Shown piece after piece: positions 2,500 to 28,800 of a DNA stretch of 32,543 nt. Each line of letters begins with the position of its first letter. Within the stretch, counting starts at the first letter, position 1. A program made the position numbers and the translations under genes. Below the pieces are notes generated by a model. That model made no database searches. It worked only from the letters and a program-made list of their open reading frames with translations, and was not told the origin of the DNA. Origin of the DNA: Chitinivibrionales bacterium (lineage in GTDB: Bacteria > Fibrobacterota > Chitinivibrionia > Chitinivibrionales > WJKA01); assembly GCA_038247415.1 (NCBI GenBank), contig JBBRUX010000043.1, positions 1-32,543 on the forward strand, written 5' to 3'.

Positions 2500-2594
2500 A
2501 AGAATTCCTTTTACTAAAAATATACGATCGTGAGCAACTCTGCCAGCGCAGAGGAAAATAAAAAAATGATTGGCATTGCAGCAAGGAGTATGGT

Positions 2595-3428
2595 ATGGAT
2601 CGAAGTTCGATTATCAAGCAGGTTGGTTTAAGCTCAGATGATAAGCGTTTGCAGCAGATTCCGTGGCAAAAAATAGAAAATGAAGCCGATGAATATGCAT
2701 CTCTTCTACTCGTGCTTTCCGAATATACAGAATCTATCGCAATGCGCTTACATCAGTTCAAGGCCGCGTGCGGGCACAAGGTACAAGTCTTAACTGTTAA
2801 TGAATTTATCGAGAAAAAGGTACTTGCGTTTCTTGATCAAACACAAATTATACATGAAACCTCTCTTGATGCGGCAGTTATAGACCTCTATTTTATTGAC
2901 AAAAACGCATTGCATTCCCTGCATCAGAATATTATCAAAACCTGGAATCTAACGCATGATCCTACCTTGATGTGCCCCGCGGCTGACCCCCTTGGATTTG
3001 CTAGCTTTGCAAAAGACATTGGAGCTGAAATCTTTCACCCTCGTGGGACACAAACCTATGTCGAATATACTTTGGAATCAAATCTCTATAAAGCGCCAAT
3101 GAAGGTAGTGGTACGTGCTCGTTCTTTGGGCGAAGTCTATTTAGCAGAAGTCAAACAATGCCTTGCCAAGAGAGAATATAGTGCCATGTCGGCAATCGTG
3201 CAGGCTGCAGCCCTGATGGGAGACGCACTTCATTCTTTCATAATGCAAACCCCACCAGTTTGCGAATCGAACACGCCTGTTGTGCAAAAGCCGGGCAAAG
3301 AGAGTGGGGTATTTCCCCGTAGTGTTACTGCCACAGCGCAAGCGGCAGTTTCCGAGAGCTTGGGATCTGATGATATGGCAGCAACAATGGCAATATCGAT
3401 GGAAACGTTTCGAGCTTCTAGAAAATGA
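2595..3428 (+). CDS. Hypothetical protein, first gene of the kinase/PilB operon
   Basis: 277-aa ORF with AAGGAG RBS, 12 bp before the kinase gene. No recognisable domain; low-complexity Thr-containing C-terminal tail. Confidence 0.75.
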   Translation: MDRSSIIKQVGLSSDDKRLQQIPWQKIENEADEYASLLLVLSEYTESIAMRLHQFKAACGHKVQVLTVNEFIEKKVLAFLDQTQIIHETSLDAAVIDLYFIDKNALHSLHQNIIKTWNLTHDPTLMCPAADPLGFASFAKDIGAEIFHPRGTQTYVEYTLESNLYKAPMKVVVRARSLGEVYLAEVKQCLAKREYSAMSAIVQAAALMGDALHSFIMQTPPVCESNTPVVQKPGKESGVFPRSVTATAQAAVSESLGSDDMAATMAISMETFRASRK

Positions 3429-3440
3429 TAGGAGGCCAGG

Positions 3441-4382
3441 ATGAATAGCAACGAACAAGCCCTCTATGGAGAATATCTGGGACGAACAATTGGTGGCGTA
3501 ACCATTGTGTCATTTATTGGTGCTGGGGCAACATCTGCAGTTTTTTCAGGATTTCAACGAACCCTCAAACGTCAAGTTGCTGTTAAAGTGCTTCCCAAGG
3601 CAACGAAGTCGGTTATTGCCAATCACGACCTCTTTATGCTAGAAGCAGAGCTTGTTGCTCAGCTTCATCATCAAAACATTGTACCAATTTACGAAATGGG
3701 TGAAGATGATCAGTGCTATTACCAGATTGTGCAATTAGTGTCCGGCGAAGATTTACAGCATTTAATGCAGCGAACATCAAAAAACCCGATCCCGCAACGA
3801 AAAAAGTTACCACTTAAGCACGTTATCGAATACCTTTCACAAGTTTTAGATGGCCTTGCATATGCGCATGCAGAAGGTGTGGTTCATAGAGATATTAAGC
3901 CCGGGAATATCCTCATCGACACTAAAAGCAACCGCCCGCTCATTACCGATTTTGGATTGGCAATTACCCGGTGGTCGCCACAAAAAACCAATAGTCAAAC
4001 CATAGAGGGATCTCCTTTGTATATGGCTCCGGAGTATGTGCGCGGCGCCGCTCCCACTGCGGGTTGCGATATTTACGCGACGGGAATCATCTTGTATCAA
4101 CTCATTGTAGGTGCCCTCCCTTTGACTCAGCGCGATCCTTTTAAGCTGCTACAAAAAAAATATGAACACCCCGAAGCGCTCTTTGATCTAACGCCGCGTC
4201 AGGTAGATCCCGCTATGCCTTTTGGGCTAGAACGAATTATCCAAAAAGCAATCGATATAAATCCTTTGCAGCGCTACCAGACGGCGCAGGAATTTAAAGC
4301 CGCATTGAGGACATTTGAAACTGAAATGCACACAACTGTCAATGCGGTAAGCGAGGTAGTGTATGCATACATCGGAAACTGA
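3441..4382 (+). CDS. Soluble Hanks-type Ser/Thr protein kinase
   Basis: GAGATSAV loop, VAVK, HRDIKPGN, DFG, GSPLYMAPE, DIYATG all intact. No TM segment. AGGAGG RBS. Confidence 0.95.
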   Translation: MNSNEQALYGEYLGRTIGGVTIVSFIGAGATSAVFSGFQRTLKRQVAVKVLPKATKSVIANHDLFMLEAELVAQLHHQNIVPIYEMGEDDQCYYQIVQLVSGEDLQHLMQRTSKNPIPQRKKLPLKHVIEYLSQVLDGLAYAHAEGVVHRDIKPGNILIDTKSNRPLITDFGLAITRWSPQKTNSQTIEGSPLYMAPEYVRGAAPTAGCDIYATGIILYQLIVGALPLTQRDPFKLLQKKYEHPEALFDLTPRQVDPAMPFGLERIIQKAIDINPLQRYQTAQEFKAALRTFETEMHTTVNAVSEVVYAYIGN

Positions 4383-6993: not shown

Positions 6994-9124
6994 TTTACAA
7001 ACTCATACAATGCCTAAAACAACGCTGTGCATTCTTACCCAGGTTCAAAGCAATGTTGGGCCAGTCGTTAAGCTTATTAATGCAACGGAATCGGGAGATC
7101 ATGTTTCGGTAACGCAAGGCATCCTAGGCGATACATTTACCGAGAGTCCCGAAATTGTAATCGCCGTGCATACAGCAGGCCATGATGTAAATGACTATTG
7201 CGAAAAGGTAAAAATACTTACATCCATGGCGATAACAAGCATTGTGATTGCAATGGTTCCAAAAGATTTCCCTCAAGAGCAGATAGATGATTCGCTTATA
7301 CTGTGTGTAGAACAAGTTCTTCGATACCCTATGCCTGGACCAGACTTTAGCAGGCATATCATGACCCATGTTGCATCTTTGCGCATAAAAATAGAACGCG
7401 AAAAATCTCTGACCGATCTAACGCGCAATCAGGTTCAGTTTGGTGAGTTGCTTGTAGAGAATCATATTATTTCTCCGGAACAGCTTGCACGTGCACTCGA
7501 CTATCAGAAGGGTGCCGATCAAAGGTTGGGAGACCTCTTAGTATTGCTTGGATTTATTACCGAAGAACAAAAAGTTCATTTTCTTTCGAGTCAATTATCT
7601 GTGGGTATTGCATCTGCTCGTCAGTATGCAGCCACAGACCTAGCTACGGTTTCTTTAATTCCCGAACATCTTGCTCGGCGATACACCTGTATTGCGCTTG
7701 AACGGCATGAAAAGAGGCTTCGTGTAGCCATGGTGGATGTGCTCGATTTGCATTTGCTCGATTCCTTGCGAGATACGACTAATTTGTCCATCGACCCTTT
7801 GCTTGGCATTAGCGATGATATCCAAAGAACTATCGATAGGTGCTACCAGGATATTGCTTCACAAAAAGACGCATCCATGCTCATTGCCGATCTTACCGAT
7901 TCTGTCGAATATGTAAAAAATGGTTCCGAAGAACTCAGTGCCGAGGAAGCTGCTGCAGCAGGTGCAGAGCTCGGGATTATCAAGCTAGTTAATTTACTGA
8001 TAGCACATGCAATACGAGACAGGGCAAGTGATATTCATATCGAACCTATGAGCGAGTCATTATCGATACGCTATCGAATCGATGGTGAATTGCATACAGT
8101 AATGTCTCCCCCTAAAAGATCGCACTCTGCAATATTAACAAGAATAAAAATATTGTCGGACTTAGACATTGCAGAACGGAGGCTTCCCCAAGATGGCCGT
8201 ATGGTAGCCAAAATAGGGAGTCGAGAGGTAGATATTCGGGTCTCTATTTTGCCAACAGTTTTTGGAGAAAAAGCGGTGCTTCGTATTCTCGATAAAGAAG
8301 CATTCGAAAAAAGTGTTGCAAATCTTGGGTTTTCGCATGATGATCAGCTTGTTTTTAAGAAGAATGTTGTAAAGCCGTATGGAATGATAATTGTAACAGG
8401 TCCCACAGGTTCTGGAAAATCAACAACTTTATATTCTGGCATACAATCGATAAAAAATGTAACACGAAATATCGTTACGGTGGAAGATCCTGTGGAATTT
8501 CATATCGAAGGGGTTAACCAGATTCAGGTTAACAACAAGATAGGATTGACTTTTGAAAGTGCCTTGCGCTCGATTTTGCGGCAAGATCCCGATGTTATCT
8601 TAATTGGCGAAATACGCGATGCTGAAACAGCCGATATTGCCGTTAAAATGGCACTTACCGGGCACCTTGTTTTTTCTACATTGCATACCAATGACGCAGC
8701 CAGTAGTATCGCCCGTTTTGTAGACATTGGTATTCCACCGCTCTTGCTTGCATCGTCGCTTAATCTTATTATTGCCCAACGGCTGGTTCGAAAGATATGC
8801 GCTAATTGTAAAGTTTCGTATACGCCAGAAGATGAATTGCTCGAACAACTAGATCTTATAAAGCATGCAGCACCTGTCTTTTATAAAGGCGAGGGTTGTG
8901 TACATTGTAATGGTATCGGCTATCTGGGTCGATGTGGCATATTTGAAATGATGCCCATCACAAAAGAGATTAGGACCCTCATTTTGCGTGGTGCACCATC
9001 TATGGATATTGCAGCAAGCGCAGAAGCTGCAGGCATGAAGACGCTGCGTCAAGCAGGAATTGATCTTGCTTTGCAAGGATTTACAACAATAGAACAAATT
9101 ATTGCTGCAACAACAGAACTGTAA
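6986..9124 (+). CDS. pilB: PilB/GspE-family assembly ATPase with N-terminal pseudo-receiver and MshEN domains
   Basis: ASDIHIEP, LDIAERRLPQDG, Walker A GPTGSGKST, TVEDPVE, LRQDPDVILIGEIRD, TGHLVFSTLHTN, and Zn-binding CANC/CVHC. Tandem MshEN-like motifs at about 7436-7597. Confidence 0.92.
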   Translation: MIDLQTHTMPKTTLCILTQVQSNVGPVVKLINATESGDHVSVTQGILGDTFTESPEIVIAVHTAGHDVNDYCEKVKILTSMAITSIVIAMVPKDFPQEQIDDSLILCVEQVLRYPMPGPDFSRHIMTHVASLRIKIEREKSLTDLTRNQVQFGELLVENHIISPEQLARALDYQKGADQRLGDLLVLLGFITEEQKVHFLSSQLSVGIASARQYAATDLATVSLIPEHLARRYTCIALERHEKRLRVAMVDVLDLHLLDSLRDTTNLSIDPLLGISDDIQRTIDRCYQDIASQKDASMLIADLTDSVEYVKNGSEELSAEEAAAAGAELGIIKLVNLLIAHAIRDRASDIHIEPMSESLSIRYRIDGELHTVMSPPKRSHSAILTRIKILSDLDIAERRLPQDGRMVAKIGSREVDIRVSILPTVFGEKAVLRILDKEAFEKSVANLGFSHDDQLVFKKNVVKPYGMIIVTGPTGSGKSTTLYSGIQSIKNVTRNIVTVEDPVEFHIEGVNQIQVNNKIGLTFESALRSILRQDPDVILIGEIRDAETADIAVKMALTGHLVFSTLHTNDAASSIARFVDIGIPPLLLASSLNLIIAQRLVRKICANCKVSYTPEDELLEQLDLIKHAAPVFYKGEGCVHCNGIGYLGRCGIFEMMPITKEIRTLILRGAPSMDIAASAEAAGMKTLRQAGIDLALQGFTTIEQIIAATTEL

Positions 9125-9136
9125 CAAGGAGAACGT

Positions 9137-9574
9137 ATGCGAAAAGTAACTATTCTACTATGTTTGGTGAGCGTGTTTTTGGTAGAGTGTCGGGACACGG
9201 GGAATGTGATTACTATAAAAAATATGGCAGAGGCATCAATGATTTTCTCATTTAGGGGTGAAGTTCATGATGTTGCATCGGGGGCTGATGTTTCCCTTAC
9301 GCACGTACCAAATGGAACTTATAATTACATGACCATTACAACTGTTCCTGCTGGAATGGACAAATGGACGCCCGATAAGAATTTGTCGGGAACTCTTTCT
9401 TTGTATAACAATATGACAACGGTATCAGTCATCTATACATCGATAGTTCAAATTGACTCGAGTGCAGCAGGAGCGGATACTTCATCGATACAGAAAACTA
9501 TCACAAAAACATATTCCGCTTACGCCACGGTAACGTCTTCGCATAGCGCATTGTCAAATTCAACTGTGCAGTAG
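9137..9574 (+). CDS. Putative lipoprotein (small beta-sandwich)
   Basis: AAGGAG RBS. Signal peptide MRKVTILLCLVSVFLVE-C with an atypical lipobox. Beta-rich Ser/Thr sequence. Confidence 0.7.
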   Translation: MRKVTILLCLVSVFLVECRDTGNVITIKNMAEASMIFSFRGEVHDVASGADVSLTHVPNGTYNYMTITTVPAGMDKWTPDKNLSGTLSLYNNMTTVSVIYTSIVQIDSSAAGADTSSIQKTITKTYSAYATVTSSHSALSNSTVQ

Positions 9575-10463
9575 TTTCCTACGGGCGGGCGGCCTATTCA
9601 CGCTATAAAAAAGTGCTTCCTCGCTCAATTTTGAGGTTGGCTAAAAGCTTCGGAAATGATGCCCTCCAAAGGCTGTACCGAATAAATTGCGCTCATTTTG
9701 TTCCGAGAATAGCAAGTTGTATATTCAATTTGTCTTCACATCGTAAGTATTATAAAAAATGACAGTCGCAAACTGGTTGTTCATGCTGCGTCTTTCTCAC
9801 GGATCGATATGGCCGGCGCACCACGAGCACCCCCAATTCGGGTATGCTATGGGAAACGAAATAGCCAACTGGTTTGGTTCCGTTTAAGGGATGTTTTGGT
9901 ATGCTATCGGTAAGTTTTTCCTATAGTAACGAGTTGTGCGAAATAAACTAGGCAAGAATGAATTATAGGCGCGCACGAAGAAATAGAGCACAAACAGAGT
10001 TTGCAATGCACCAAAGGACAAGCAAGGCGTTTTTAAAGGTATAGAATTAAAAAACGGAAAAATAACATTGATGTTTATTGGTATGGTACGGACAAGTTAG
10101 AATATCCAAAAAGCATTATGACAGACTTACTCAAACAACATGTTTACGATTATGGAAAATTACCAAAGTGGAATAAATAAAATATGTAGACACTTAAGCA
10201 ATACTTTAACAGTATACAACGGGCAACCCATAACAGCAAGTAGGGTTAGTCCAATTAAAAAACAAATTTATTCTCGTTATTCAAGATGATACTCTGCAAG
10301 AAAGAGCCTTCCTGAACAATCAGGAAACGACGAAACAGTATATATTTTAGATGTTTTATCGAGTGGAACAATATTGTACGTCGCACGATCAAGTTCAGAT
10401 AATAAAGGTGGGGCAGTGATTTACCAAAGGCATTTTATCGAGACGCAAGAAGTTAAACTAAAG

Positions 10464-11788
10464 TCACAGAGTTGCCGATGTGTTCTTTTTGGCTAGATAC
10501 ACATACATTGCCGGTACTATAAAGAGGCATACCCGCAGAAATTCGCTGGTTGGCAAATTCCACTATAAGAATACCATTTCTAGCAACAAGACCAATGAGC
10601 ATGATGATGCCTATTTGGGAAAAGATATTCATAGTCTGGTTGCAGTACCAGAGCGAAAAAAGCGCTCCGCTTAAGGCTAGGGGAACCGTGGCATTAAAAA
10701 TGATTCTGCTACGATCTTCGAGTGGAGCAAGTTCGGTTGGTAAAAGATTATAAAAAATTACAATGCCAATTAAAGCAATCCCCATTATAGGAAAGGCAAT
10801 CCATTTACGTTTAAGAAATGTTTGCAGTGCCCCTGTGTATCCAGCGATGCGACGTTCAAATAAATGTTTTCGAGTACTACAATTGCATTCTCAACCATAA
10901 GTCCTGTTCCAAGAACCAGAGCATTGTTTCTTCTACTTCGGTAATAGATTGACGAATGGTAGGGGTTACATCAAAAGCTGTTTTTAGTGTGATATCGGGG
11001 GGGGGGGGGGAGTTCTTTTTTTATTGCTGCAAGACGTTTATATGCTTCATTGGCAATGGCAATATAATTTGCACCAGGTTGCGGGGTAAGGCCAATGTCT
11101 ACCATGACTATTCCATCCATTTTCATTATTTGTCGAGAATTTTCAATGCCTTCGAGAGCTTCGCCAATATCTTTAAAACGCACTGGCTGTCCGTTTGTTC
11201 TGCGAATAATAAGATTGTTGAATTCATCAATTGATTGTATGCTGCTCATGGTTCTGATGGTCAATTCGGTCTGGAGACCTTCTACGGTACCTGAAGGCGT
11301 TCCTTTAAAACATCGTTGGCAAAATCGCTAAGCTGTGTGGGTGTTTTGGAATTGCTTTACAAAGAAATCATGATGATTGGTGATGAATTGGCGTCGGCTT
11401 TTGAAACAATGGGCGGGTCTGTATCTGTGGGGAGATTTCGTGTAGCGCGTGAAACCCTATCGCGTACATCATTTGCTGCTGCTTCGAGGTCGATGCCTAA
11501 ATTGAATTCTACCGTTATGGTGCTGCGTCCGTCGGCACTTGTGGAAGTAAGAGTCCGTATTCCTGATATGCCATTGACAGACTCTTCGAGGGGCTCGGTA
11601 ATTTTACTTTCGATAACAGCAGAATTGGCACCGGCATAGGAGGTTGAAACGGTAATTACCGGTGGATCGACTGCGGGGTAATCCCGAACACCCAGTGATT
11701 GAAATGAGAGTATGCCAAAGAGGACAATGACACTAGAAATAACAGTAGCCAGTACAGGACGGGTTATAAAGATAGACGAAAATTTCAT
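10464..11788 (-). pseudogene. AcrB/AcrD/AcrF-family RND permease pseudogene (internally deleted, nonsense, frameshifted)
   Basis: Colinear AcrB fragments: MKFSSIFITRPVLAT...DPPIVSKADA; KERLQ; PSGTVEG..ELTIRT; ITEVEET; AIVVLENIY; APLEDRS; VPLALSGA..GLVARNGILIVEFANQ; LFIVPAMY-stop. Only about 1.3 kb remains of a gene normally about 3.1 kb. In-frame TAA at 11357-11359. Confidence 0.9.
10997..11010 (+). repeat. G14 homopolymer (C14 on the RND coding strand) causing a frameshift
   Basis: gatatc-GGGGGGGGGGGGGG-agttc. The frame KKELP... resumes as DITLKTAFDVT only in a shifted frame. Confidence 0.9.
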
Positions 11789-11794
11789 CGCGCA

Positions 11795-11930
11795 CTGCAC
11801 CACCTTTGCCTGCCCCTTTTTTTGAAGGCATGCCTACCGTTGAATCTTTATGCCCAAACATTTTTGGAAGCGCAATGAGAGCTATAATGGCAAGAGCAAT
11901 AAGAATCCAGACTAATCGCTTGAATGTCAT
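11795..11930 (-). pseudogene. N-terminal remnant of the RND periplasmic adaptor (MFP) gene
   Basis: MTFKRLVWILIALAIIALIALPK...KKGAGKGGA matches the membrane anchor and Gly-rich linker of MFP subunits. It runs directly into the AcrB start; the rest is missing. Confidence 0.65.
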
Positions 11931-18180: not shown

Positions 18181-18349
18181 AAGCGTATTGTTGAAATAGG
18201 AGGAACCTTAATTCCCCGTAAAACGGTGGCGCGCTTATCAAGATAATGCAGAGCGTTTAAGCGAAAAAAGCTCCCTAAAGTGCGGTCGAAATAAGATTCC
18301 ATGACTTATTTTATAATCTGTTTACAATGCACTTTTTACAAGGAACTCT

Positions 18350-19033
18350 ATGCTCAACAATTATAGTGGCACCCCTCCTCCGCATTTCGATAGCGCAAAA
18401 ATAATTCTCTTTGATGATCTTACAGATTGCGTGGATTTAGCTTTGTCGTATGTGCAAAAGGGAGCGATAGCTCTGGCGGCCGGTTCTACTTTGTCTCGTT
18501 TGTATGCGTTGATGGCTTTAAAAGGCAGTGATTCTTCTGCGGCATCGTTTTTTCCTTTAGATGAACGGTGTGTCCCACTCGATAATCCAGGCTCGAATTG
18601 GGGTTTAATAACCAGCACGTTTTTGTCAGCCATCGGGAAAAGTTCAGACCAAGCCCATTGGGGAATAGATGCTGAGAGTTTCGAAAAAATCGTTCGGAGG
18701 TTTTTTGGTGAACGCACACCTCAATTCGATTCTATACTTATGAGCATGGGTGACGATGGTCATGTTGCTAGTCTTTTTCCACACAGTGATTCTCTGGCCG
18801 ATATGCAATCTATTGTTCTTGCAACAAAAAGCCCAAAACCACCCTACGAGCGTTATACGTTAGGCCCACGCCTTATTGCCTGCGCACATAAGGTTCTCTT
18901 GTTTATCGAGGGTGAAGCAAAAAGAGCGGTGGTAGCAAAGTTTTTGCAAGGAGATTTAGGGATTCCAGCATATTCTCTTTTGCACAATCGCACAGAGTCG
19001 ACGGTATTGATCCATCGATATCTCGTGGAATGA
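18350..19033 (+). CDS. pgl: 6-phosphogluconolactonase
   Basis: IALAAGST, DERCVP..SNW, FDSILMSMGDDGHVASLFP, SPKPPYERYTL, GEAKR. AAGGA RBS. Confidence 0.88.
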   Translation: MLNNYSGTPPPHFDSAKIILFDDLTDCVDLALSYVQKGAIALAAGSTLSRLYALMALKGSDSSAASFFPLDERCVPLDNPGSNWGLITSTFLSAIGKSSDQAHWGIDAESFEKIVRRFFGERTPQFDSILMSMGDDGHVASLFPHSDSLADMQSIVLATKSPKPPYERYTLGPRLIACAHKVLLFIEGEAKRAVVAKFLQGDLGIPAYSLLHNRTESTVLIHRYLVE

Positions 19034-19170
19034 GAAATGTGCGTTGCACATAATCAACTGATTAAACGCAATCGATCACTTTTCTGCACCATTTTAGCCT
19101 AGCATTAATTACTTTATTTTAGTGTCTTTTTGAGTGATGAGGGAGCTAAAATCTTTCGAAAAGGATATTC

Positions 19171-20214
19171 ATGGGATCTCGGGGCATGTCGTTTTTAGCT
19201 GGATTTAGGCCAATTAAGCTGTTTGATGCTTGCATGATGGCAGTGGGTATTCTTTGTATGAGCGCAACCGTCGCGGATGTTGCGCCGGGGTATCAAGCAC
19301 GAATAATCAAGCCAGGCGAAACGATTTCATTGCTCTGCATCGAATTGTATGGGCACTATGCTCCTTCTATGGGTGCTGCGCTTCAAAAAGCTAATCCGAC
19401 TCTTACCGATATCAATAAAATTACCCCCGGGCAAAAAATCCTCTTTAAAGATCCAGTACAGGCTCCTGTTAAGGCGCACCCAACTCCCGGAGTATCCACT
19501 CCAGGGAATCCTCCAGAAGAATCTTCCGTATTCGAAAAGCAATTGACCATTACACAGGGTGTTGTAACCTATTTGGAGGGTGAGGCAACTATTGTTGATA
19601 CTCACGGAAAAAAGGCCTCCCTCAAGGTCAATGCTCTGGTGTATCCAGGAGACATTATTCAAACCTCTAAATCTGGTCGCGTCGAAATAATAATCAACCG
19701 CGAAACGGTTGTCCGGATTAGAGAAAATACCAAAACATCCTTAGTTGCTTTTCGAACCAACGGTATAGATAAAGGTGCAACACGGGTAGGATTTTCTTCG
19801 GGAAGCGTATGGACAAAAATGAAGAAATTTGCGGATCGGGTAACACGATTTCAGCTTGAGCTTCCAACCGCCATAGCCGGGGTTCACGGTACGGTATATA
19901 ATGCGACTATTAATCGGGATAGTTCTTCGGCTGTTTCTGTGTATGAGGGTGAAGTAGCGGTTCAAAATGCTCCAGAAACCTATGAAAGTGGTCAGGTCCT
20001 CGAGGTTGCAGCCCCCGCAGAAGTAGCCGGGCCACACGAAGTATCACTTGACGAATGGGTTTACATTATTAAAGCAATGCAAACCATTGCCATCGATAAA
20101 CACGGCGTTGCCAAGAATCCCGAAACTTTTACAAAAAACGAAAATGATTCCTGGGTTGCTTTTAACGAAGAGCGCGATCGACAGGTGTCTGCAATCATAG
20201 ATGGAAAAGAATAA
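19171..20214 (+). CDS. Exported LysM + FecR domain protein
   Basis: Signal-like N-terminus. LysM 'IIKPGETISLLCIELYG...KANPTLTDINKITPGQKIL'. Pro-rich linker. FecR 'VTYLEGEATI..GDIIQT..GRVEI..VRIRENT..GSVW..LPTAIAGVHGT..VSVYEGEVAV'. Confidence 0.85.
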   Translation: MGSRGMSFLAGFRPIKLFDACMMAVGILCMSATVADVAPGYQARIIKPGETISLLCIELYGHYAPSMGAALQKANPTLTDINKITPGQKILFKDPVQAPVKAHPTPGVSTPGNPPEESSVFEKQLTITQGVVTYLEGEATIVDTHGKKASLKVNALVYPGDIIQTSKSGRVEIIINRETVVRIRENTKTSLVAFRTNGIDKGATRVGFSSGSVWTKMKKFADRVTRFQLELPTAIAGVHGTVYNATINRDSSSAVSVYEGEVAVQNAPETYESGQVLEVAAPAEVAGPHEVSLDEWVYIIKAMQTIAIDKHGVAKNPETFTKNENDSWVAFNEERDRQVSAIIDGKE

Positions 20215-22559
20215 TGGATATAAGGAAAATTAGCATTCTTGGTGTAGGAACGGTACTGCTCATTGGATCTAGTATCGTTTCGATGCTTATTGGAGCAGAA
20301 GATTTCTTTTACGGACTTAATTTTCTCTCAAGCAGAAAACCTACAACCGACGCCGTGGTGATTGTGGGTGTAGATCCTGCAAGTGTCAATGCCGTTGGCG
20401 GATGGCCGTGGTCCCGTTCGACGCTTGCAAATCTGTTTGAACGCATTCAACAGGCATCTCCAAAGGCTGTGGCTCTCGATTTGTTTTTTCCAAAACGAGA
20501 TGGTGTTGAGCAGAATGATAGCCTCGCACATGTGTTTTCCCGCATGCCGCATCTGGTGCTTCCATTTAGTTTTGGTATAGATCCGACAGTGCACAACGAG
20601 ATGCCCATAGATGTTTCCCCCCACCTTTATTCGAGCAGATTCCAGATGCTTGCAAACCCCAATGCGATGCAGGGAATCACAGTTTATCGGGCAATTTCTG
20701 CATCTGCTCCGGATAGTCAATTTCTGATACATGCGGCGCGAAGTGGCTTCATGAATGTCCCTACACGCAAAAATGGCCAAGTGCTGCGCGAGGTGATCCA
20801 TGTTGTTCAAATTAACGATGATTACTATCCAAGCTTTGGTTTGGCTGCGCTTGCAGCGTATCGTGACTTAGGTCCCACATCGTTTACACTTGATGGAGCT
20901 GGCACAGTGCACGTCGGGAACCTTGATGTCCCTTTAAGTTCGTATGCAGCCTCTACGCGGGTCAACTTTCGCGGCAGGGCAGGTACTATTAAAACCGTGT
21001 CGGCAGGAGATGTTCTACGGGGCGCCATCGATCCATCGGTATTTGCGCAGAAGCTTGTTTTTGTAGGTATCACCGATCCTGGAGCGGGAGTCGATGTTTT
21101 TGCCACTCCTGTTGGCCCGCAGTTTCCCGGGGTAGAGGTATGGGCCAATGCTGTTCTTGATATTTTAGAAAAAACACCCGTGCGCAGTGGCGGCATTTTT
21201 GAAATACTCATGTGGTGTCTCGCATTTTTTATTTTCCCGGGTTTGGCCTTTATTCTTCCTGCTAAAAAAAATATTCTTGCCGTAATCGTAAGCGCAGGAT
21301 TGTGCATCTGTGCGGTAGGCGGATCGTTGGCATTGTTTCGTATGGTATCGTCTTTTGTCAATCCTATGCCCGTACTCATTGCTTGGGTTTTTGGGGTTTG
21401 CTGGCTCGCGCTCAGTAGAATCAAACCAGAGCTTGTTGCCGGTTCTGCTAACCTCTGCTTTGAATCTGATTCCTTAGCAATGCTCGAAGTGTTGCCCCCT
21501 CCCAGCGAAAATGATTTTTGTAAAGTAATCCCTCAAACCGATACGGCGCACTTTGTTGTTAAAAAATTAACTGCCCAAAACCACTTTGCAGTTGTGGCTG
21601 CTCACGATTCTACCATGGTAGAAACCAATACGGCTGCGCTGCAAGCTTCCGAGAGCGCTCTATTGGCTGCGTTTGGTGATCTTTGCAATGGGAGAATTAT
21701 AAAGCTTTTAGGGAGTGGCGGCATGGCAGATGTGTATCTGATTTGGAATGCTCGTATGGAAGTGTATCGGGCCGTTAAAGTTGTTAAGCCAGAGCAGTCA
21801 GAATCTGTTATGAGCCGCTTCGAAACAGAAATTCGTATCCTTGCGCATATGAATCATCCTCATATTGTTCAAAGCTATGCTGTTATGCAATGGCATTCGC
21901 TTCCCTGTATTGAAATGGAATATGTCAATGGCATATCGCTTGATGAAGTATTAACTCGCTGCAAAGTGTTGTCTGCACCGCAGGTTATTGCAATAGGGAT
22001 TTTGGTATGTAAAGCATTATCGTATGCGCATCGTCATTCGGTAACCCTCTATGGCACGGTATACAAAGGCGTAATCCATCGAGATCTAAAACCTGCCAAT
22101 ATCATGTTATCACGCACGGGGCACATTAAGCTTACCGATTTTGGCATAGCGCGGCCTAATGAGGTTAGTTTGCATACCGGAGAATCACAATCTATTGTTG
22201 GAACAATTCCTTATCTTGCGCCCGAGCAAGTCGATGGAATTTCTATCACCCACCGTGCTGATATTTATGCACTGGGTGTAACCTTATACGAATTGGTGTG
22301 TGGGGAACGTGCTTTGCCCCAAAAGGATCTTACATCCCTTTTGCAGGCAAAAACAACCGGTACCATCAAACCTCTTCCTACAAGCCTTGTTCCTCCGCTT
22401 TTGTCCGATGTGATACATAAAGCTGTTGCAGTAGATCCTGAACATCGGTATGCTACGGCGCTGGATATGGAACAAGCACTCACAAAAGTGTGGACGCAAT
22501 TTATTAAAGAACCAAGTGAAACAGTTTTAGAAAAACTTGTTAGACGGGTATGGAACTAA
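20214..22559 (+). CDS. CHASE2 sensor - 3 TM - Ser/Thr protein kinase
   Basis: CHASE2 'VVIVGVD..GGWPWSRS..AVALDLFF..KLVFVG..FATPVG..PGVEVWAN'. Three hydrophobic helices. Kinase GSGGMADV, AVK, HRDLKPAN, DFG, GTIPYLAPE, DIYALG. TAATG overlap with the upstream gene. Confidence 0.92.
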   Translation: MDIRKISILGVGTVLLIGSSIVSMLIGAEDFFYGLNFLSSRKPTTDAVVIVGVDPASVNAVGGWPWSRSTLANLFERIQQASPKAVALDLFFPKRDGVEQNDSLAHVFSRMPHLVLPFSFGIDPTVHNEMPIDVSPHLYSSRFQMLANPNAMQGITVYRAISASAPDSQFLIHAARSGFMNVPTRKNGQVLREVIHVVQINDDYYPSFGLAALAAYRDLGPTSFTLDGAGTVHVGNLDVPLSSYAASTRVNFRGRAGTIKTVSAGDVLRGAIDPSVFAQKLVFVGITDPGAGVDVFATPVGPQFPGVEVWANAVLDILEKTPVRSGGIFEILMWCLAFFIFPGLAFILPAKKNILAVIVSAGLCICAVGGSLALFRMVSSFVNPMPVLIAWVFGVCWLALSRIKPELVAGSANLCFESDSLAMLEVLPPPSENDFCKVIPQTDTAHFVVKKLTAQNHFAVVAAHDSTMVETNTAALQASESALLAAFGDLCNGRIIKLLGSGGMADVYLIWNARMEVYRAVKVVKPEQSESVMSRFETEIRILAHMNHPHIVQSYAVMQWHSLPCIEMEYVNGISLDEVLTRCKVLSAPQVIAIGILVCKALSYAHRHSVTLYGTVYKGVIHRDLKPANIMLSRTGHIKLTDFGIARPNEVSLHTGESQSIVGTIPYLAPEQVDGISITHRADIYALGVTLYELVCGERALPQKDLTSLLQAKTTGTIKPLPTSLVPPLLSDVIHKAVAVDPEHRYATALDMEQALTKVWTQFIKEPSETVLEKLVRRVWN

Positions 22560-24232
22560 TGCATTATTATCTTGAAATTACGCGAGGCTTTGAGCTTGGC
22601 AAACGATTCCCTCTGCCCGAAGGGGCTACGTCTATTGGGCGGTCTTCACAAAATTCCCTTGCGTTTGACCCATCTCAAAAAAATGTTTCCAGCCATCATG
22701 CCATTATTTACAAAAGTGGTGATCGTATTGCTTATCAAGATCTCGATTCGACCAATGGTAGCTTTGTCAACGAGCAGCAAGTAACAGAAAAAGCGCTTGT
22801 TGTAGGGGACGAAATAGGTTTAGGAAAGAACGGCCCGCGCTTGAAGTTGTACGAATCAGAGACAGAAATTTCAGCGCCTTCTCCGGGGGTCTCATTTGCA
22901 AAAACAACTACCACTCCGCGTGATGGAAGCTATGGTATCGAAGATTCTACCGAAAAAATTGGTATGCATAGCGTTCAATCTACTGCAATGGAACCTAACG
23001 CACTCCGAGCGCAAAAAGAAGCGCATATATTTGCCAGCAATCAGTTTGACGAAAGCGAGCCTCTCTCAAATACTATGCATATGGAAAAGAAGCTTTTCAG
23101 CAAGGAAATAGATGCAAAAGATATGGGCAAGCTTCTCAAAAATGGGCGCATGGTAGAAAAAATCATAGAGCGCGGAAATATCAGTCATACCCAATCTACC
23201 ATGTTGCGAACAACGCTGCATGCGTCAAGAAATAATAATCGGCAGTGGATGATAATTCTTGGTATCGTATGCGTTGTGTCTTTGGCTGCAATAAGTTTTT
23301 TTGCCATTCGAGCCTATCAATATCACGCTATTCTGAGCAAAGGGCTAACTCTTAAAGATGCTCTTAATAAGCAGGAGCGCACTATTGCTAAAGCCCAAAA
23401 CGACCCGAAAGTAAGTGATAGCCGCTTAAAGGATCTGATTGCACAACTTGAAGCAACAAAAAGCCAACTCGCAGAAGTTAAATCTCGTGTCAACGAAAAA
23501 GATCAGGTCAAATTTTATTCCGATCCTATCGAAGAAGCTATCGATAAGATACTTCGAGGCTTTGGCGATAATAATTATTCCATTCCTCCCCAGATGGTAG
23601 AACGAGTAAAATTCCATATTAATTTTTACGCCTATCAGAATGCAGGTATGATGAGCAGATATCTCATTCGTAAAGAAGAATATTTTCCTACCATTATCCG
23701 CGTATTTGCAGAAAAAAAGCTCCCTAAAGAGCTTGCATTTATTTCGATGCTTGAGAGCGGATTTAATCCCAAGGCTTTAAGCCCCGTAGGAGCGAGAGGC
23801 TTATGGCAATTTATGCCTGCAACGGGTCAACGATATGGGTTAACGGTAAATGACATTGTTGACGAGAGATTAGATCCGGAAAAAGCTACCTATGCCGCAG
23901 CCGAATACTTTAAAGATCTGGTAGCTATTTTTGGTGGGCAAAGCTCGGTAATGCTTGCAATGGCAGCGTATAATGCCGGAGAAGGCCGCATTATGGGAGT
24001 GTTGCGCAAAATCGACGATCCCATGCGCAATCGGGATTTCTGGTATATTTATCGCATGGGGTATCTGGCAGACGAAACCCGTGAGTACATACCACGCGTT
24101 ATCGCGCTCATGATAATTTCCGATAAGCCAGAAAATTTCAAGCTACGAAAAGGCATCCCCGCAACCGTTAATACTGCGGCTCTCGAAAACGAAAACGACT
24201 TTATCAAGCTCGATATTCCTGCAGGTAAATAG
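22559..24232 (+). CDS. FHA - TM - coiled coil - MltD-like lytic transglycosylase (SLT/GH23)
   Basis: FHA 'SIGR..VSSHHA..DLDSTNGSFVN..LGKNGP'. TM 'WMIILGIVCVVSLAAISFFAI'. Coiled coil. SLT motifs ESGFNP, GARGLWQFMP, AYNAG, ETREYIPR. Start placed at the TAATG overlap (alternative ATG at 22550). Confidence 0.9.
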   Translation: MHYYLEITRGFELGKRFPLPEGATSIGRSSQNSLAFDPSQKNVSSHHAIIYKSGDRIAYQDLDSTNGSFVNEQQVTEKALVVGDEIGLGKNGPRLKLYESETEISAPSPGVSFAKTTTTPRDGSYGIEDSTEKIGMHSVQSTAMEPNALRAQKEAHIFASNQFDESEPLSNTMHMEKKLFSKEIDAKDMGKLLKNGRMVEKIIERGNISHTQSTMLRTTLHASRNNNRQWMIILGIVCVVSLAAISFFAIRAYQYHAILSKGLTLKDALNKQERTIAKAQNDPKVSDSRLKDLIAQLEATKSQLAEVKSRVNEKDQVKFYSDPIEEAIDKILRGFGDNNYSIPPQMVERVKFHINFYAYQNAGMMSRYLIRKEEYFPTIIRVFAEKKLPKELAFISMLESGFNPKALSPVGARGLWQFMPATGQRYGLTVNDIVDERLDPEKATYAAAEYFKDLVAIFGGQSSVMLAMAAYNAGEGRIMGVLRKIDDPMRNRDFWYIYRMGYLADETREYIPRVIALMIISDKPENFKLRKGIPATVNTAALENENDFIKLDIPAGK

Positions 24233-25203
24233 TGCCTCGTCCATCCTTTGCCTATCTTGAACCATCCGAGTGGGAAATTAAAATTAGTGCGGCCGATGCC
24301 CTTGCATCGGCCTGCCGACTATGCCCGCGTGCGTGTGGTGTCAATCGCCATAGTGGGCAAACAGGTTTTTGTGGCGCAACCAATGCTATGAAAATATCAA
24401 GCATTTTCCCTCATTTTGGCGAAGAACCCCCCTTGTGTGGCACGGGCGGATCGGGTACCATTTTTTTCTCTCATTGTACTCTGGGTTGTTGCTTTTGTCA
24501 AAATTATCAGCTGAGCGACAATGGCATTGGCGACACATACACCGTTTCTGATCTTGCCCTAAAAATGCTCGATGTAATGGCGCGCGGTTGTCATAATATT
24601 AATCTTGTTACCGCAACTCATTATTTGCCCTGGATGCTACGAGCCTTGCAAAGCGCTGCAGAACAGGGATTAGAAATCCCACTTGTTTATAACTGTGGCG
24701 GCTATGAGTCCTTAGAAACTATCGATATACTTAAGGGAATTGTTGATATTTGGCTTCCCGATATGAAATACGGATCAAATAAAAAAGCCGATCTCTACAG
24801 TGGCGCATCAAATTATGTTGAGGTAAATCGTGCTGCAATTGCTGCAATGATGAAACAGTGCGGGCCCTTAAAAGTCGACAAAAATGGGATTGGTTACCGA
24901 GGGGTAATCATTCGACATTTGGTTTTACCAAATCAGGTGGAAGAGAGCCTTTCTTTAGTCGAGTATCTTACAAACCATTTTGACCCCGATGATTGTATCC
25001 TTTCGCTCATGGCACAGTACACCCCTTTACATAGGGCGTTAGATTTTCCGGAGCTTTCACGAAAACTCACTCAAGAAGAATATCGCGTGGTGTATGAAAG
25101 GTGCTTGAAAATCGGGTTTGATGGTTTTTATCAGAATCTAGAAAGTATGGATGATGGGTTTGTGATTGATTTTACAAAGAGAAAAGCCGAAGAATTACGA
25201 TGA
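24232..25203 (+). CDS. Radical SAM protein, PflX-like (putative PFL-activating enzyme family)
   Basis: N-terminal CRLCPRAC..GFC, HFGEEPP..GSGTIFF, CxxxCxxC (CTLGCCFCQN), GCHNINLVT, LPDMKYG, IIRHLVLP. GTG start overlaps the upstream TAG. Confidence 0.88.
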   Translation: MPRPSFAYLEPSEWEIKISAADALASACRLCPRACGVNRHSGQTGFCGATNAMKISSIFPHFGEEPPLCGTGGSGTIFFSHCTLGCCFCQNYQLSDNGIGDTYTVSDLALKMLDVMARGCHNINLVTATHYLPWMLRALQSAAEQGLEIPLVYNCGGYESLETIDILKGIVDIWLPDMKYGSNKKADLYSGASNYVEVNRAAIAAMMKQCGPLKVDKNGIGYRGVIIRHLVLPNQVEESLSLVEYLTNHFDPDDCILSLMAQYTPLHRALDFPELSRKLTQEEYRVVYERCLKIGFDGFYQNLESMDDGFVIDFTKRKAEELR

Positions 25204-25347
25204 ATAGGCAGTTTGTTGAGACACGTGATATCGTGAGCGTGCGATGTAAAAAGGAAGTCATGCTAGAAAGGCAAGATATTCTGTGCCTAGCAAATGTCCT
25301 TGCATGAGATTAATTTAAATAAAAAGCGGAGTTTAGCTCAAAAGCAT

Positions 25348-25707
25348 GTCGCTGTTGAAAGTGCTGTTGCGATACTTGAAACTGTAGGGTTCAAATCAGA
25401 GCGTTTCGAATGGTCAATTAATTTTAAAGGTGCATCAAAAGTCAGTATTCAAATAAGTACTGAAGATTTTTATAAAGATTTTCCAAGTAGATCTGTTCCT
25501 GCGGATGTACATGGGATTCTCATGCGAGTTGCATCTCTTGAAGATACTTTACAAGGAAAAGTTGAAGCTTGGAAAGATAAAAATATGAGGCAAAGTAAAA
25601 AGATAAAAGATCTCGCTGATGTAGCTCGACTGGTCGAAAGCCATCCACACTTGTGGAGTATTTTGGATAAGGAGCTTCAAGCTTTAATAGAAAAGCCTTG
25701 CCAATAA
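25348..25707 (+). pseudogene. N-terminally truncated nucleotidyltransferase (AbiEii-like/stand-alone NTase family)
   Basis: 'GFKSERFEWSINF..IQISTE..VASLEDTLQGK..W..RQSKKIKDLADVARL' is the C-terminal part of this family. The N-terminal GG..A / DxD catalytic region is absent, and the first about 18 aa of the ORF from 25294 look unrelated. Confidence 0.6.
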
Positions 25708-25776
25708 ACCCCTCGATATCTTTACAAAAAAAACTTGACCAGTGCAAAATAGAGCTTAAAAAATGTCCCTTTGTCG

Positions 25777-25800
25777 GCAACAACTAATTGTAGTTGTTGC
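25777..25800. terminator. Perfect 10-bp hairpin between convergent genes; possible terminator
   Basis: GCAACAACTA-attg-TAGTTGTTGC, 20 bp beyond the stop of the giant minus-strand gene. No adjacent U-tract. Confidence 0.4.
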
Positions 25801-25820
25801 ACGGTCAAGGGCCTCATAAA

Positions 25821-28800
25821 TCATTTATCCTTGATTCCTAGCAAAAAGGTCTGCTTTGAACTTCCGAGATTGCCTTTGCTGAGTAGCGAAATCATATATA
25901 CTCCCGGTGCGCAGGCCATTCCCATTTCGTCGCGACCGTTCCAGTACAGAGAATACATTTTTGATCCCTGTGCAGCCTTAACCTCGTCGGCAATATCACG
26001 AACTGGAGTTTGACGAACTATGCTATGGTTGAAGTTGTAAATCGCTACCTGACAGTGGAGATCAGGAGTACCTTTTTGCGCATCAATTTGGAATTTTATC
26101 ACCGCACCTGCACCGTCATTAAGCACCCACGAAATAGCCTTTGGTTGATCAATTATTTCAAAAGCTGCATTTCGCGAAGAAACTTTCATGGGATTAGGAG
26201 CAGAAACCAGCGGCTGGATTCTTTGAGAGATTAATGCTGGCATCACAAGCGCTGGATTGTCGCCCAGATCGAGAGTACCTTGCTCTATAGTTGTATTGTT
26301 GCTGCCAAGAAGCTGATATTCAAGCGTTAGGCGAGAGTGAGGTTTTGAGGTTGCAGGAAGCCAGAGCGTAGCAACGGTCCCGCTTCCCGAAACGCCGACA
26401 TCTCCAGAAGAAAATCGGGCAAGCGAAGCCTCGCTCCATGAAGGATTTTCTCGCGTTAGTGCTAGTACCTCGGCTTCTTTTTCAAGCACGGTATTATTTG
26501 TTTCAATCGCTACTATGCCAGAGGATCCCCAAATCCGATATCGGCAAGCAACAAGGCCAGAGATATTTTCTACGCGTAAGTCTACACGAGCAGTAGTAGC
26601 CCCTTTTATTAATTCGCATGTAAGAGCAGCGCATTGAAAACGAGCCGGGGCAATTGAGATCGCTGGAGGAATTGACAAAGACGATTGTCGTAAAGAGGAA
26701 GCGCTTGCACTTTCTGCCGGTATCGCCACAACCTTGGTAAGCGATCCACTCTGCTGCGGATGCTGCTGTCCATATGTCCAGTACCAGTCGCGCATAAAAA
26801 CACTCAGATCTCGGTAGTCAAAAAGGCTGTCGGGCGAAAGCACAAAGTAGGGTGAGCTGCCCACTGCTGGGCCTGCTTCCTGGATGCTGTCGGTCTTTTG
26901 CCAGGTGCGAACTGCCGAACGGTTCCAGTACTGTGCCGCCAGAGTAAGGTCCTCAAATCCGACTGTGTCGTTACCCGAAAAATCACCCAGATAGCCAGTA
27001 CGAAACGACCACATAAAATCGTCCGCAGGTGTTCCATCCGACGAATCGTTGGAGTTACCGTCGAGCGATTTCCCGAATTTGTCTTTGACCATGCTTGAAA
27101 CATGAACGGTAAACAGATCGTTGGCTTGGAGATAGAAATACGGGCGAACAGAAATCATGGAATCGGTGCAGGTAACAGTTATGGGAACGGTTCCCTGATG
27201 TGTGCCTATAAGGGTCACCGTTGTTGCATTTACCGTTGCGGCATCAAAAAGCGAAGATCCGCTCTTTACAGAAACAGTTATTGTTGGGATTGCATTGGCC
27301 GCCACGCGGGTGCCCTGCACAGGAGTCGCCTTTGTCAGCTGTAGGGCGGGCGTATTATCCACCACAATAAAAGGCGTTGAATCTGAAAATCCGGGCATAT
27401 GCGATAGGGGCGTAATTCGCACCATAAGCGAATCGAACCGTTTACCTGCCAGATTGTTTTCCGCTGCAGTGTTCCACTGGAGCGTGCCAGTATAATGTGC
27501 TGCGTCGAGGCTGTCACCGCCAAGGATTGCAGTAGAACTGATCCATGCACTCTTAGGAGAGAGGCGATAAACCAGGGCTAAAGATATTTTTTCGTTATCT
27601 GAATCGGATAGCACAAAGGGAATACGCACAATATTGCGCTGCTGCTTAGCAATCTGGCCTAGTTTGCATCGAGGGGCTGGATTAAGGATAACATGCAGAG
27701 AAAATGTCTGCGCACCTATACCGCCATGTTGGTCGTCGGCATTAATGGTAATTGTTTTAGTTCCCGTGTCTGCATCGGTTGGAGACCAGCGCACTACGCC
27801 CGATGCTGCATTAATGGTCATTGTCGCCGGTGCTTTTGCGAGAGCAAACAAAAGACTTGTCGTATCGTAATCGCTTGCGCGTGCCTGGTAGCTATAATCG
27901 GCAAGGCTAATGCACTGGGTGTCGGGCTGGGACACAAAAATTGGCGTATCAAAAGAATCCTTCACCGAGACAAACACATTTTTTGTGACTGACGAAATCC
28001 CATCCGATACCTTGACAGTAAAAGAAATAGTTCCAATGCCGCGGGTATGCGGGGTACCAAATACCGAATCTCCTTGTGCGGTAAGCCATGCAGGAAATTG
28101 GGAAGGAAACAAAATAACAAGGTCGGAAGTTTGTAGATCGCTAGCGGTTGCTCGATAGACAAAGGCGCGATGCTGGGTGGAGCTTGCAGTGTCTGCCGAA
28201 GTGATGACCGGCGGAGTGTTGATGAATTGGACACGAACCTGTACGGACAATCGGCTCACCAGGGTGTCATCGGTGGCCACCACAATAAAACTTGTATCGA
28301 CCGTTGTAGTTAACGGCATTCCCTCAACCACATTACCGGTTGCCAAGAGCCACGATGGCAGGTTTTCGAAGGTGATTTTTACCGCTCGTCCTTCGGGGTC
28401 GTAGGCATCGGCAGTGTAGGCAAATTGCATATTTGTTATAACGCCTTTGAGCGCTGAAGATGTAATGACCGGAGGATCGTTGACCGGTTTTACACTTATT
28501 TTGACGGTGTCGATATCTGATGAAGATGCCCCGGTTGCCACAATGATAAACGATGTGTCTGTCGCACCCTCGGGTGGGATCCCCCAGAGGCTATCGCTTG
28601 ATACATGCAACCATGATGGATATTTTGGAAACGATAAACTTAAGAGCGTGGATGGGTCGAGTACCGTTGCACGATAATTGAAAAGCACATGCTCAATTGC
28701 CGATACCTTGAAAGAAGAGGTGATTTTTACCGGTGTATTTGGCGTAAGGACCGCAACATGCACTTTGAGGGTATCGGACAAGCTGCCATCGGTTGCCACA

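Follow-up and report, generated by a model that had tools for sequence, protein, structure and literature searches.

An operon pairing a CHASE2 sensor kinase with an FHA-fused lytic transglycosylase may serve type VI secretion in Fibrobacterota

In Pseudomonas aeruginosa the H1 type VI secretion system (T6SS) is under a threonine-phosphorylation pathway made up of TagQRST, PpkA (TagE), Fha1 (TagH) and PppA (TagG), and in Agrobacterium the pathway runs from PpkA through phosphorylated TssL to Fha, according to the portions of a review of T6SS accessory factors on which we draw (PMC13584744). The same portions describe local cutting of the cell wall for the T6SS membrane complex by MltE of enteroaggregative Escherichia coli, which the membrane complex recruits, and by the l,d-endopeptidase TagX of Acinetobacter, whose anchor lies in the inner membrane and whose enzyme domain is periplasmic (PMC13584744). 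Operons that pair a LysM-FecR protein (COG4254) with a CHASE2 histidine kinase have been described in Burkholderiales ('BiofilmReg') and in P. aeruginosa (PA4035/PA4036), in a partial text according to which, in 2016, it was not known what signals CHASE2 domains recognise (PMC5192318). Here we analyse an operon that encodes an exported LysM-like/FecR protein, a CHASE2 sensor kinase of the Hanks Ser/Thr type and a protein in which an FHA domain, a transmembrane (TM) helix and an SLT lytic transglycosylase domain are joined (hereafter FS). It lies in a stretch of 32,543 nucleotides (the window; contig JBBRUX010000043.1 of assembly GCA_038247415.1, positions 1 to 32,543) from a Chitinivibrionales bacterium, a sediment member of the phylum Fibrobacterota whose genome, G000, is 96% complete; window genes are numbered on the + strand.

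On balance we favour the reading that this operon is a sensor-kinase-effector module serving a T6SS, a variant of the threonine-phosphorylation pathway whose FHA effector itself cuts peptidoglycan. The original prediction, made from this DNA alone, had envisaged a self-contained circuit. Judging from genome comparison, the circuit is probably not self-contained, because FS tracks the presence of T6SS in the lineage and is encoded inside T6SS clusters in many relatives.

Anatomy of the four-gene operon

We assigned domains with Pfam and NCBIfam profiles at their family cut-offs and topology with a hydropathy scan. Analysis of open reading frames (ORFs) revealed four on the + strand that are chained by stop/start overlaps, encoding the LysM-like/FecR protein (19171-20214; 347 aa), the CHASE2 kinase (20214-22559; 781 aa), FS (22559-24232; 557 aa, as in its database cluster representative, or 560 aa from the ATG at 22550) and a radical-SAM protein (24232-25203; 323 aa, with a GTG start). 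At the FecR/kinase junction, GAATAATGGAT, the stop TAA at 20212-20214 overlaps the ATG at 20214 in TAATG, and the same arrangement recurs at the kinase/FS junction, CTAATGCAT, with a stop TAA at 22557-22559 and an in-frame ATG at 22559; the ATG at 22550 is also in frame. The FS/radical-SAM junction reads TAGTG, so that the GTG start overlaps the FS stop. Both TAATG overlaps had been predicted and both were found; the three genes are joined as proposed, and the fourth, the radical-SAM gene, had been overlooked. A scan of 18300-25900 for promoters and terminators gave 16 promoter-like and 8 terminator-like sites, not above the level of shuffled sequences. Among sequencing runs, five metagenome runs of DNA type were listed for the stretch, and no RNA run.

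The first protein has one N-terminal hydrophobic, signal-like stretch (residues 17-38; 19219-19284), a LysM-like domain at about residues 44-95 (19300-19455), a FecR domain (Pfam 4.9e-10; residues 162-262; 19654-19956) and a C-terminal region that is conserved among orthologues. Its N-terminal domain falls below Pfam LysM and has Phage_tail_X, presumably a family of the LysM clan, as its sole match at 0.03. All of 19 orthologues carry the FecR domain, while LysM was matched in 10 of them at E<=1 (best 2.5e-6) and Phage_tail_X in 11. Since the window copy falls short of Pfam LysM, 'LysM-like' is the accurate term; of the LysM-FecR protein originally predicted, the FecR domain and the signal-like N terminus stand and the LysM domain is retained in this weaker form. 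The nearest NCBIfam family to the FecR part is Leptospira Lsa33/LipL45, far under cut-off. We considered and rejected a role as a FecI/FecR-type anti-sigma factor, because only the periplasmic FecR domain matches, with neither a cytoplasmic anti-sigma domain nor a sigma partner; no sigma-factor or TonB-receptor gene lies near the FecR gene within the window.

The kinase matches CHASE2 (1.4e-43) and Pkinase (1.3e-47). A first TM segment (residues 8-26) leads into the CHASE2 domain (residues 17-337; 20262-21224), predicted to be periplasmic, and three further TM segments (residues 331-403; 21204-21422) complete a 1+3 pattern ahead of the kinase domain (residues 496-760; 21699-22493). K522, E539, D624, N629 and D642 are invariant in 21/21 orthologues. 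Two juxtamembrane threonines are largely conserved in the same alignment: T444 (21543-21545) is threonine in 18 of the 21 sequences and serine in the other 3, and T467 (21612-21614), part of a T-x-[VI]-E motif, is threonine in 18 and serine in 2, with a gap in the remaining one. The PASTA-kinase profile NF033483 matched the kinase domain only (profile positions 10-271 of 563; 217.6 bits versus a cut-off of 450), the outer domain being CHASE2. Complex prediction for CHASE2 (residues 27-330) with the mature FecR protein (residues 40-347) gave ipSAE values of 0.00 and 0.02, which are evidence neither way.

FS matches FHA (4.3e-14; 22628-22825) and SLT (1.5e-26; 23720-24004, with the catalytic Glu codon at 23753-23755). 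A disordered linker follows the FHA domain, a TM helix (residues 235-253; 23252-23308) lies between the two domains and long periplasmic helices precede SLT. The hydropathy scan found no signal peptide and this single TM segment, so the two domains face each other across the membrane, the FHA domain predicted to be cytoplasmic and SLT periplasmic, and do not share one side, which would have counted against the proposed circuit; the AlphaFold2 model agrees. The model (mean pLDDT 85) comprises an FHA sandwich, a disordered linker at residues 110-168, a helix of about 70 residues (210-281) that crosses the membrane, a second helix (287-309) and an all-helical enzyme domain. A coiled coil had also been predicted; the long helices of the model are the basis for a putative one. 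In Foldseek searches the enzyme domain best matched P. aeruginosa MltD (8RHE/8RHF/8RHI; E 6e-9 to 5e-8, 30-32% identity) and the N-terminal part best matched phospho-threonine-binding FHA domains such as GarA, OdhI and FhaA. The FHA residues G27, R28, S44, H47, S64 and N66 are invariant in 13/13 diverse homologues, as is the SLT pair E399-S400 (557-aa numbering); the catalytic Glu-Ser and AYNAG motifs are conserved. R28, S44, H47 and N66 correspond to the phospho-threonine contacts of canonical FHA domains.

The out-in-out anatomy that had been proposed was borne out in these analyses: a periplasmic LysM-like/FecR protein, a membrane CHASE2 sensor with an intact Hanks kinase in the cytoplasm, and an FHA domain in the cytoplasm that a single TM helix links to an intact, MltD-like transglycosylase in the periplasm. 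The NCBIfam MltD profile PRK10783 matches FS at 1.4e-31 over profile positions 38-263 of 457, with 109.3 bits against a cut-off of 508, and Pfam detected no LysM in FS. By these profile comparisons FS is outside the TagH and MltD-equivalog families, and the FecR protein outside the FecR anti-sigma family, because the features that define each family were tested for and are absent.

Conservation of the cassette in Fibrobacterota

We searched for FS in 201 genomes of the phylum and retrieved 60 FS loci from 56 of them. All 60 hold FHA and SLT, 57 in one ORF, 2 in split ORFs and 1 with a weak FHA match only. The order FecR, CHASE2 kinase, FS occurs in 20 of these loci. A search with the CHASE2 part identified kinase orthologues in 39 genomes of the window's order, and in 28 of the 39 the kinase adjoins FS, as judged from coordinates and seven extra stretches. 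The remaining 11 divide into 5 that cannot be judged at contig ends, 5 in which the FecR-kinase pair persists without FS beside it (G075, G065, G155, G049 and G105) and 1 with the kinase alone (G029). Gaps are short, from -4 to +12 nt between FecR and kinase genes in 14/19 loci and at most 29 nt between kinase and FS genes in 15/18. Given this conserved order, adjacency and spacing, the three genes do co-occur in other genomes, and a lack of co-occurrence, which would have spoken against the circuit, was not seen.

One genus encodes FHA and TM-SLT as separate ORFs within the cassette (L076:6139-6552 and 6657-7673; L077:4168-4575 and 3065-4144). In a third genome of that genus (G075, L185) both FS parts are lost from the cassette and an FS copy lies in a T6SS cluster. 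The radical-SAM gene follows FS in 18/60 loci, some of them without a kinase; its product matches Pfam Radical_SAM under cut-off (2.2e-5), and its nearest Atlas clusters belong to the pyruvate formate-lyase (PFL)-activating enzyme family. Despite this linkage we do not assign it to the circuit, because nothing ties its chemistry to the rest.

Hanks kinases lie near FS in 29/60 loci and are of three architectures, CHASE2, a TPR type of about 900 aa and a Big_2/PEGA type, and the retrieved flank holds no kinase in the other 31. We asked what these figures mean for a different view of FS, as a structural T6SS component in the membrane whose FHA-like domain binds partners without phosphorylation, in the manner of YscD/PrgH of type III secretion, while the kinase acts on other targets. 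The Yop-YscD_cpl family of Pfam does match FS residues 9-93 above its cut-off (44.3 versus 33.2 bits), and both the 31 kinase-less loci and the lack of a PP2C phosphatase match in G000 would fit such a part. Against it stand R28, S44, H47 and N66, invariant in all 13 homologues, nearest solved folds that are phospho-threonine binders (GarA, OdhI, FhaA) and the recurrence of three kinase architectures beside FS. We therefore consider a purely structural FS improbable.

Association of FS with type VI secretion genes

The first sign of a T6SS came from Pfam annotation of FS neighbours in 27 loci without the cassette, where T6SS genes recurred: TssA, TssB, TssC, Hcp, VgrG and DUF2169. The neighbours of another FS clade are TssM, TssK, PEGA-domain proteins and large Hanks kinases. 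By tblastn, at least one T6SS core gene is present in the retrieved flank of 17/60 FS loci. Across the 201 genomes of the phylum, 77 carry both FS and TssC, 4 FS only, 10 TssC only and 110 neither (the unpublished genome G194 is counted under 'both'; without it, the figure is 76/200). Within the order, 81 genomes divide into 60 with both, 4 with FS only, 1 with TssC only and 16 with neither, and TssC is present in 35 of the 39 genomes with the CHASE2 kinase. Related genomes are not independent, and the useful signal is therefore co-variation inside genera, which we observed in three genera: FS and TssC are both present in 2 genomes of g17 and both absent from 5, and the corresponding counts are 1 and 1 in g11 and 1 and 7 in g43.

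We built a quick IQ-TREE phylogeny of FS under LG+G4 from 59 rows, without the split genes. In it all 19 cassette rows fall in one clade, whose sister (SH-aLRT 82) is a 9-row clade found inside tssA/B/C-hcp-vgrG clusters (SH-aLRT 99). No sampled genome holds FS copies of both these types together, while a third clade, beside tssM and a TPR kinase, is able to co-occur with either. The cassette stands back to back with tssA-tssB-tssC in G125. G075 and G065 keep the FecR-CHASE2-kinase pair, and the sole FS-level match listed for each is in a T6SS cluster, a pattern that is expected if the partner of the kinase is a T6SS component. In G000 itself the window FS is the only one, and the T6SS is scattered over TssA/B/C and Hcp on contig C67, TssK/L/M on C3, TssF on C7 and VgrG on C17. 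A culturable member of the class, Chitinispirillum alkaliphilum, is also reported to have a T6SS (PMC4814513). Within G000 the window kinase domain has its closest paralogue, at 47% identity, in the kinase encoded at the T6SS locus on C3. At that locus (L098:10097-18988), this 670-aa Hanks kinase and a PEGA-domain protein lie on the flanks of TssM, TssL and TssK. Contig C46 of the same genome encodes an FHA-GAF-nucleotidyl cyclase (L100:4970-7033).

A gene of about 550 aa lies directly upstream on the same strand in 14/60 loci and in L185, ahead of the FecR gene or, where FecR and kinase are absent, ahead of FS. Its profile matches TssC (5urw, 7.5e-11), IglA (2.8e-7) and VipA (2e-6) in the PDB, which identifies it as a fusion of TssB-like and TssC(N-terminal)-like parts; examples are L035:8112-9773 (-), L036:1583-3265 (+) and L185:7540-9129 (-). 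It evolves fast, with 20-42% identity between copies. One could suppose from its position, and from its staying with FS where FecR and kinase are missing (L044, L047, L049), that the cassette is a separate, undescribed module built around the fusion and distinct from canonical T6SS, of which the window copy is a remnant that lacks the fusion. This appears very improbable, as G000 and several cassette loci have no fusion gene, no other contractile-system genes accompany the fusion, and FS clades without it sit in ordinary T6SS clusters.

A more serious competitor, which we nevertheless judge unlikely, is a wall-remodelling circuit independent of T6SS. Its sensor would report the state of the wall or chitin-like glycans (the lineage degrades chitin), its kinase would switch or position a general transglycosylase for growth, division or repair, and co-occurrence with T6SS would reflect shared lifestyle or ancestry. 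Several observations fit this circuit and weigh against a role in secretion. The window contains no T6SS gene, and most cassettes are flanked by housekeeping genes such as iPGM, NAD synthase and OmpA. G029 keeps the CHASE2 kinase (36% identity) with neither FS nor TssC, and LysM-FecR/CHASE2 pairs are coupled to other outputs elsewhere, in the accessible part of the report (PMC5192318). A tblastn scan of 80 loci detected T6SS core genes in none but those whose titles name Fibrobacterota or its sub-groups; outside the phylum no such gene stood next to FS, and TssC is present in 5 of 10 genomes with FS there.

Further points tell against a T6SS function in general. Counted by hand from genus and family tallies, about five separate gains or losses in which FS and TssC agree underlie the association, and not 187 genomes. 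FS occurs without TssC in G093, G105, G123 and G159, assemblies of 240-650 contigs that are 68-97% complete and belong to genera whose other members carry TssC, and G002 has TssC with neither FS nor an orthologue of the CHASE2 kinase. In family f15, 16 FS loci have no T6SS gene nearby in genomes that are TssC-positive. The VI_FHA TagH profile TIGR03354 matches FS far below its cut-off (7.1e-8; 32.7 versus 120.25 bits). In G000, tblastn with five relatives' copies at E<=1e-3 found no TssB/TssC-like fusion, and no match to PF13672 or PF00481 and no PppA-like gene was detected; four SpoIIE-type phosphatase genes are present on C9, C28, C6 and C19, contigs other than that of the window and those of the T6SS.

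The wall-remodelling circuit, for its part, does not readily account for the comparative pattern. Within the order TssC is missing from only 4 of the 64 FS-positive genomes and present in only 1 of the 17 FS-negative ones, and the two vary together within genera. T6SS clusters enclose the sister clade and two other FS clades, relatives have a sheath-like TssB/C fusion gene at the head of the operon, and the cassette of G125 abuts tssABC. We retain the T6SS-serving module as our preferred reading on these grounds.

The f15 loci have a layout of their own (L064-L074, L087, L088, L093, L094), with an unannotated ORF of 450-500 aa and a divergent TPR protein of about 1,100 aa before FS and GAPDH-PGK after it.

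The tie to secretion does not extend to the FS family as a whole. Gemmatimonadota, Myxococcota and Acidobacteriota are the commonest phyla among Atlas clusters with FHA and SLT, and in Acidobacteriota, Gemmatimonadota, Myxococcota and Burkholderiales full-length FS is a lone gene among housekeeping genes (for example L126, L130, L131, L137 and L141). Pfam annotation of five FS loci outside Fibrobacterota showed no T6SS gene and no kinase, and the sole kinase match near FS there is weak (29%) and about 4 kb away (L138). We rejected the idea that FHA-SLT proteins are universally T6SS-bound, since they occur in lone-gene loci and in genomes without TssC (5 of the 10). From these sequence comparisons, the T6SS tie appears to be a property of the window's lineage and not of the FS family, and the link may be lineage-specific.

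From the observed anatomy and comparative pattern we infer every signalling step of the following mechanism. The LysM-like/FecR protein and the periplasmic CHASE2 domain would detect an envelope or peptidoglycan-related cue. The Hanks kinase would then autophosphorylate, with T444 and T467 in the juxtamembrane region and T655/T664 in the activation loop as candidate sites. The FHA domain of FS would dock on a phospho-threonine of the kinase or, by analogy with Pseudomonas and Agrobacterium, of a T6SS membrane component such as TssL. Docking would concentrate or activate the MltD-like transglycosylase locally, opening peptidoglycan for the T6SS membrane complex as MltE and TagX do elsewhere.

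A bolder proposal, which we regard as rather doubtful, is that the LysM-like/FecR-CHASE2 kinase senses peptidoglycan damage and triggers T6SS firing at the site of an envelope hit, with FS drilling the wall at that place. Were this so, it would be a tit-for-tat pathway equivalent to TagQRST-PpkA-Fha1 that evolved from unrelated parts, and sensor input and effector output would both act on peptidoglycan. FHA-SLT proteins in other phyla would then form a general class of wall drills, not described so far, that kinases address and different envelope machines recruit.

What is new, if our somewhat favoured interpretation is right, is a phospho-threonine pathway of the T6SS in which the FHA effector itself cuts the wall and the input comes from a LysM-FecR/CHASE2 sensor. 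We found no FHA-transglycosylase fusion described in the titles and abstract openings of the relevant literature (CHASE2-FecR, T6SS-FHA-transglycosylase, and T6SS in Fibrobacteres), nor is one described in the portions consulted of the review of T6SS accessory factors, which dates from 2026 (PMC13584744). We flag FHA-SLT fusions as an uncharacterised family. A single polypeptide here joins a cytoplasmic phospho-threonine reader to a periplasmic wall cutter and is wired to a dedicated sensor kinase across the order. The arrangement touches two open questions about T6SS, namely how the machine crosses the cell's own wall and how the time and place of its assembly are chosen post-translationally. 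The solutions described so far divide these tasks between separate proteins, MltE or TagX for the wall and PpkA-Fha1 for the signal. If the proposal holds, wall opening and signalling could be coupled directly, in a compact system of one kinase, two juxtamembrane threonines, one FHA arginine and one catalytic glutamate, and a CHASE2 sensor with a LysM-FecR partner would gain its first candidate downstream target.

Elsewhere in the window, a second FHA/kinase set lies beside secretion genes at 358-9571. Its members are a secretin (358-1692, +), an FHA-STAS protein (1684-2499, -), a Hanks kinase of 313 aa (3441-4379, +), a protein of 876 aa and an ATPase of the PilB/GspE type that carries an MshEN domain (6986-9121, +). 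Two ORFs on the - strand, at 10456-10785 and 11360-11803, match the C-terminal and N-terminal ends of AcrB-family resistance-nodulation-division pumps (ACR_tran 1e-16 and 2e-41) and, from these partial matches, appear to be what is left of a broken pump gene. A 137-aa ORF at 25294-25704 matches the AbiEii toxin nucleotidyltransferase model over positions 85-173 of 238 only, and is probably a fragment.

Comparison with described systems

MltD is a lipoprotein of the outer membrane whose C terminus bears LysM repeats (the title of structure 8RHF names two LysM domains). FS resembles it in the fold of the enzyme domain, for which MltD is the best structural match, and in the Glu-Ser and AYNAG motifs. 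It differs in having no LysM repeats, in being anchored by an inner-membrane helix, in the added FHA domain and in its profile score, 109 bits against the MltD equivalog cut-off of 508. Control of wall enzymes and regulators by wall-sensing membrane Hanks kinases through phospho-threonine, read in part by FHA domains, is known from PknB-FhaA-MviN, PknB-CwlM and StkP-MltG/MpgA. Those circuits differ from the present one in that their sensors are PASTA domains and their FHA proteins either are soluble or form no part of the enzyme, and to our knowledge none of them is tied to a secretion machine.

The sensor half has its closest counterpart in the COG4254/CHASE2 operons, where, in the part of the source available, an exported LysM-FecR protein is encoded directly upstream of a CHASE2 sensor with 1+3 TM segments (PMC5192318), as the LysM-like/FecR protein is here. 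The output there, which is transcriptional, consists of a PAS-histidine kinase and a response regulator of the CreB type, whereas here a Hanks kinase is followed by an FHA effector (PMC5192318).

On the wall-cutting side, MltE is a housekeeping lipoprotein encoded elsewhere in the genome, whereas FS is an MltD-like (family 1D) enzyme carrying an FHA domain, and TagX is a peptidase, whereas FS is a transglycosylase; the portions of the review that we cite describe no cytoplasmic phospho-reader for either MltE or TagX (PMC13584744).

The comparison with PpkA-Fha1 is the closest in logic and the most mixed in parts. The sensor here consists of CHASE2 and the LysM-like/FecR protein, in place of the periplasmic domain of PpkA and TagR (TagQRST was not sought). 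FS, although its FHA domain is itself canonical, is membrane-anchored, fused to a peptidoglycan cutter and below the TagH cut-off, unlike TagH/Fha1. G000 lacks a PP2C phosphatase match (PF13672, PF00481) that would correspond to PppA, and the module in G000 lies apart from the T6SS genes. The likenesses are a membrane-bound Hanks kinase whose sensor part is periplasmic, a periplasmic accessory protein, TagR in the Pseudomonas case (PMC13584744, as excerpted), and the presence in relatives of FS and a Hanks kinase inside T6SS clusters. In the PpkA-Fha1 pathway, as set out in those excerpts, a post-translational signal to the FHA protein promotes T6SS assembly without a transcriptional step (PMC13584744), and by analogy we propose the same logic here. 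The statement in the original prediction that no characterised system has this architecture thus goes too far: the logic matches that of PpkA-Fha1 with TagR, together with wall opening as by MltE and TagX (PMC13584744), and the LysM-FecR and CHASE2 pair has been described with histidine kinases (PMC5192318), in both cases within the excerpts cited.

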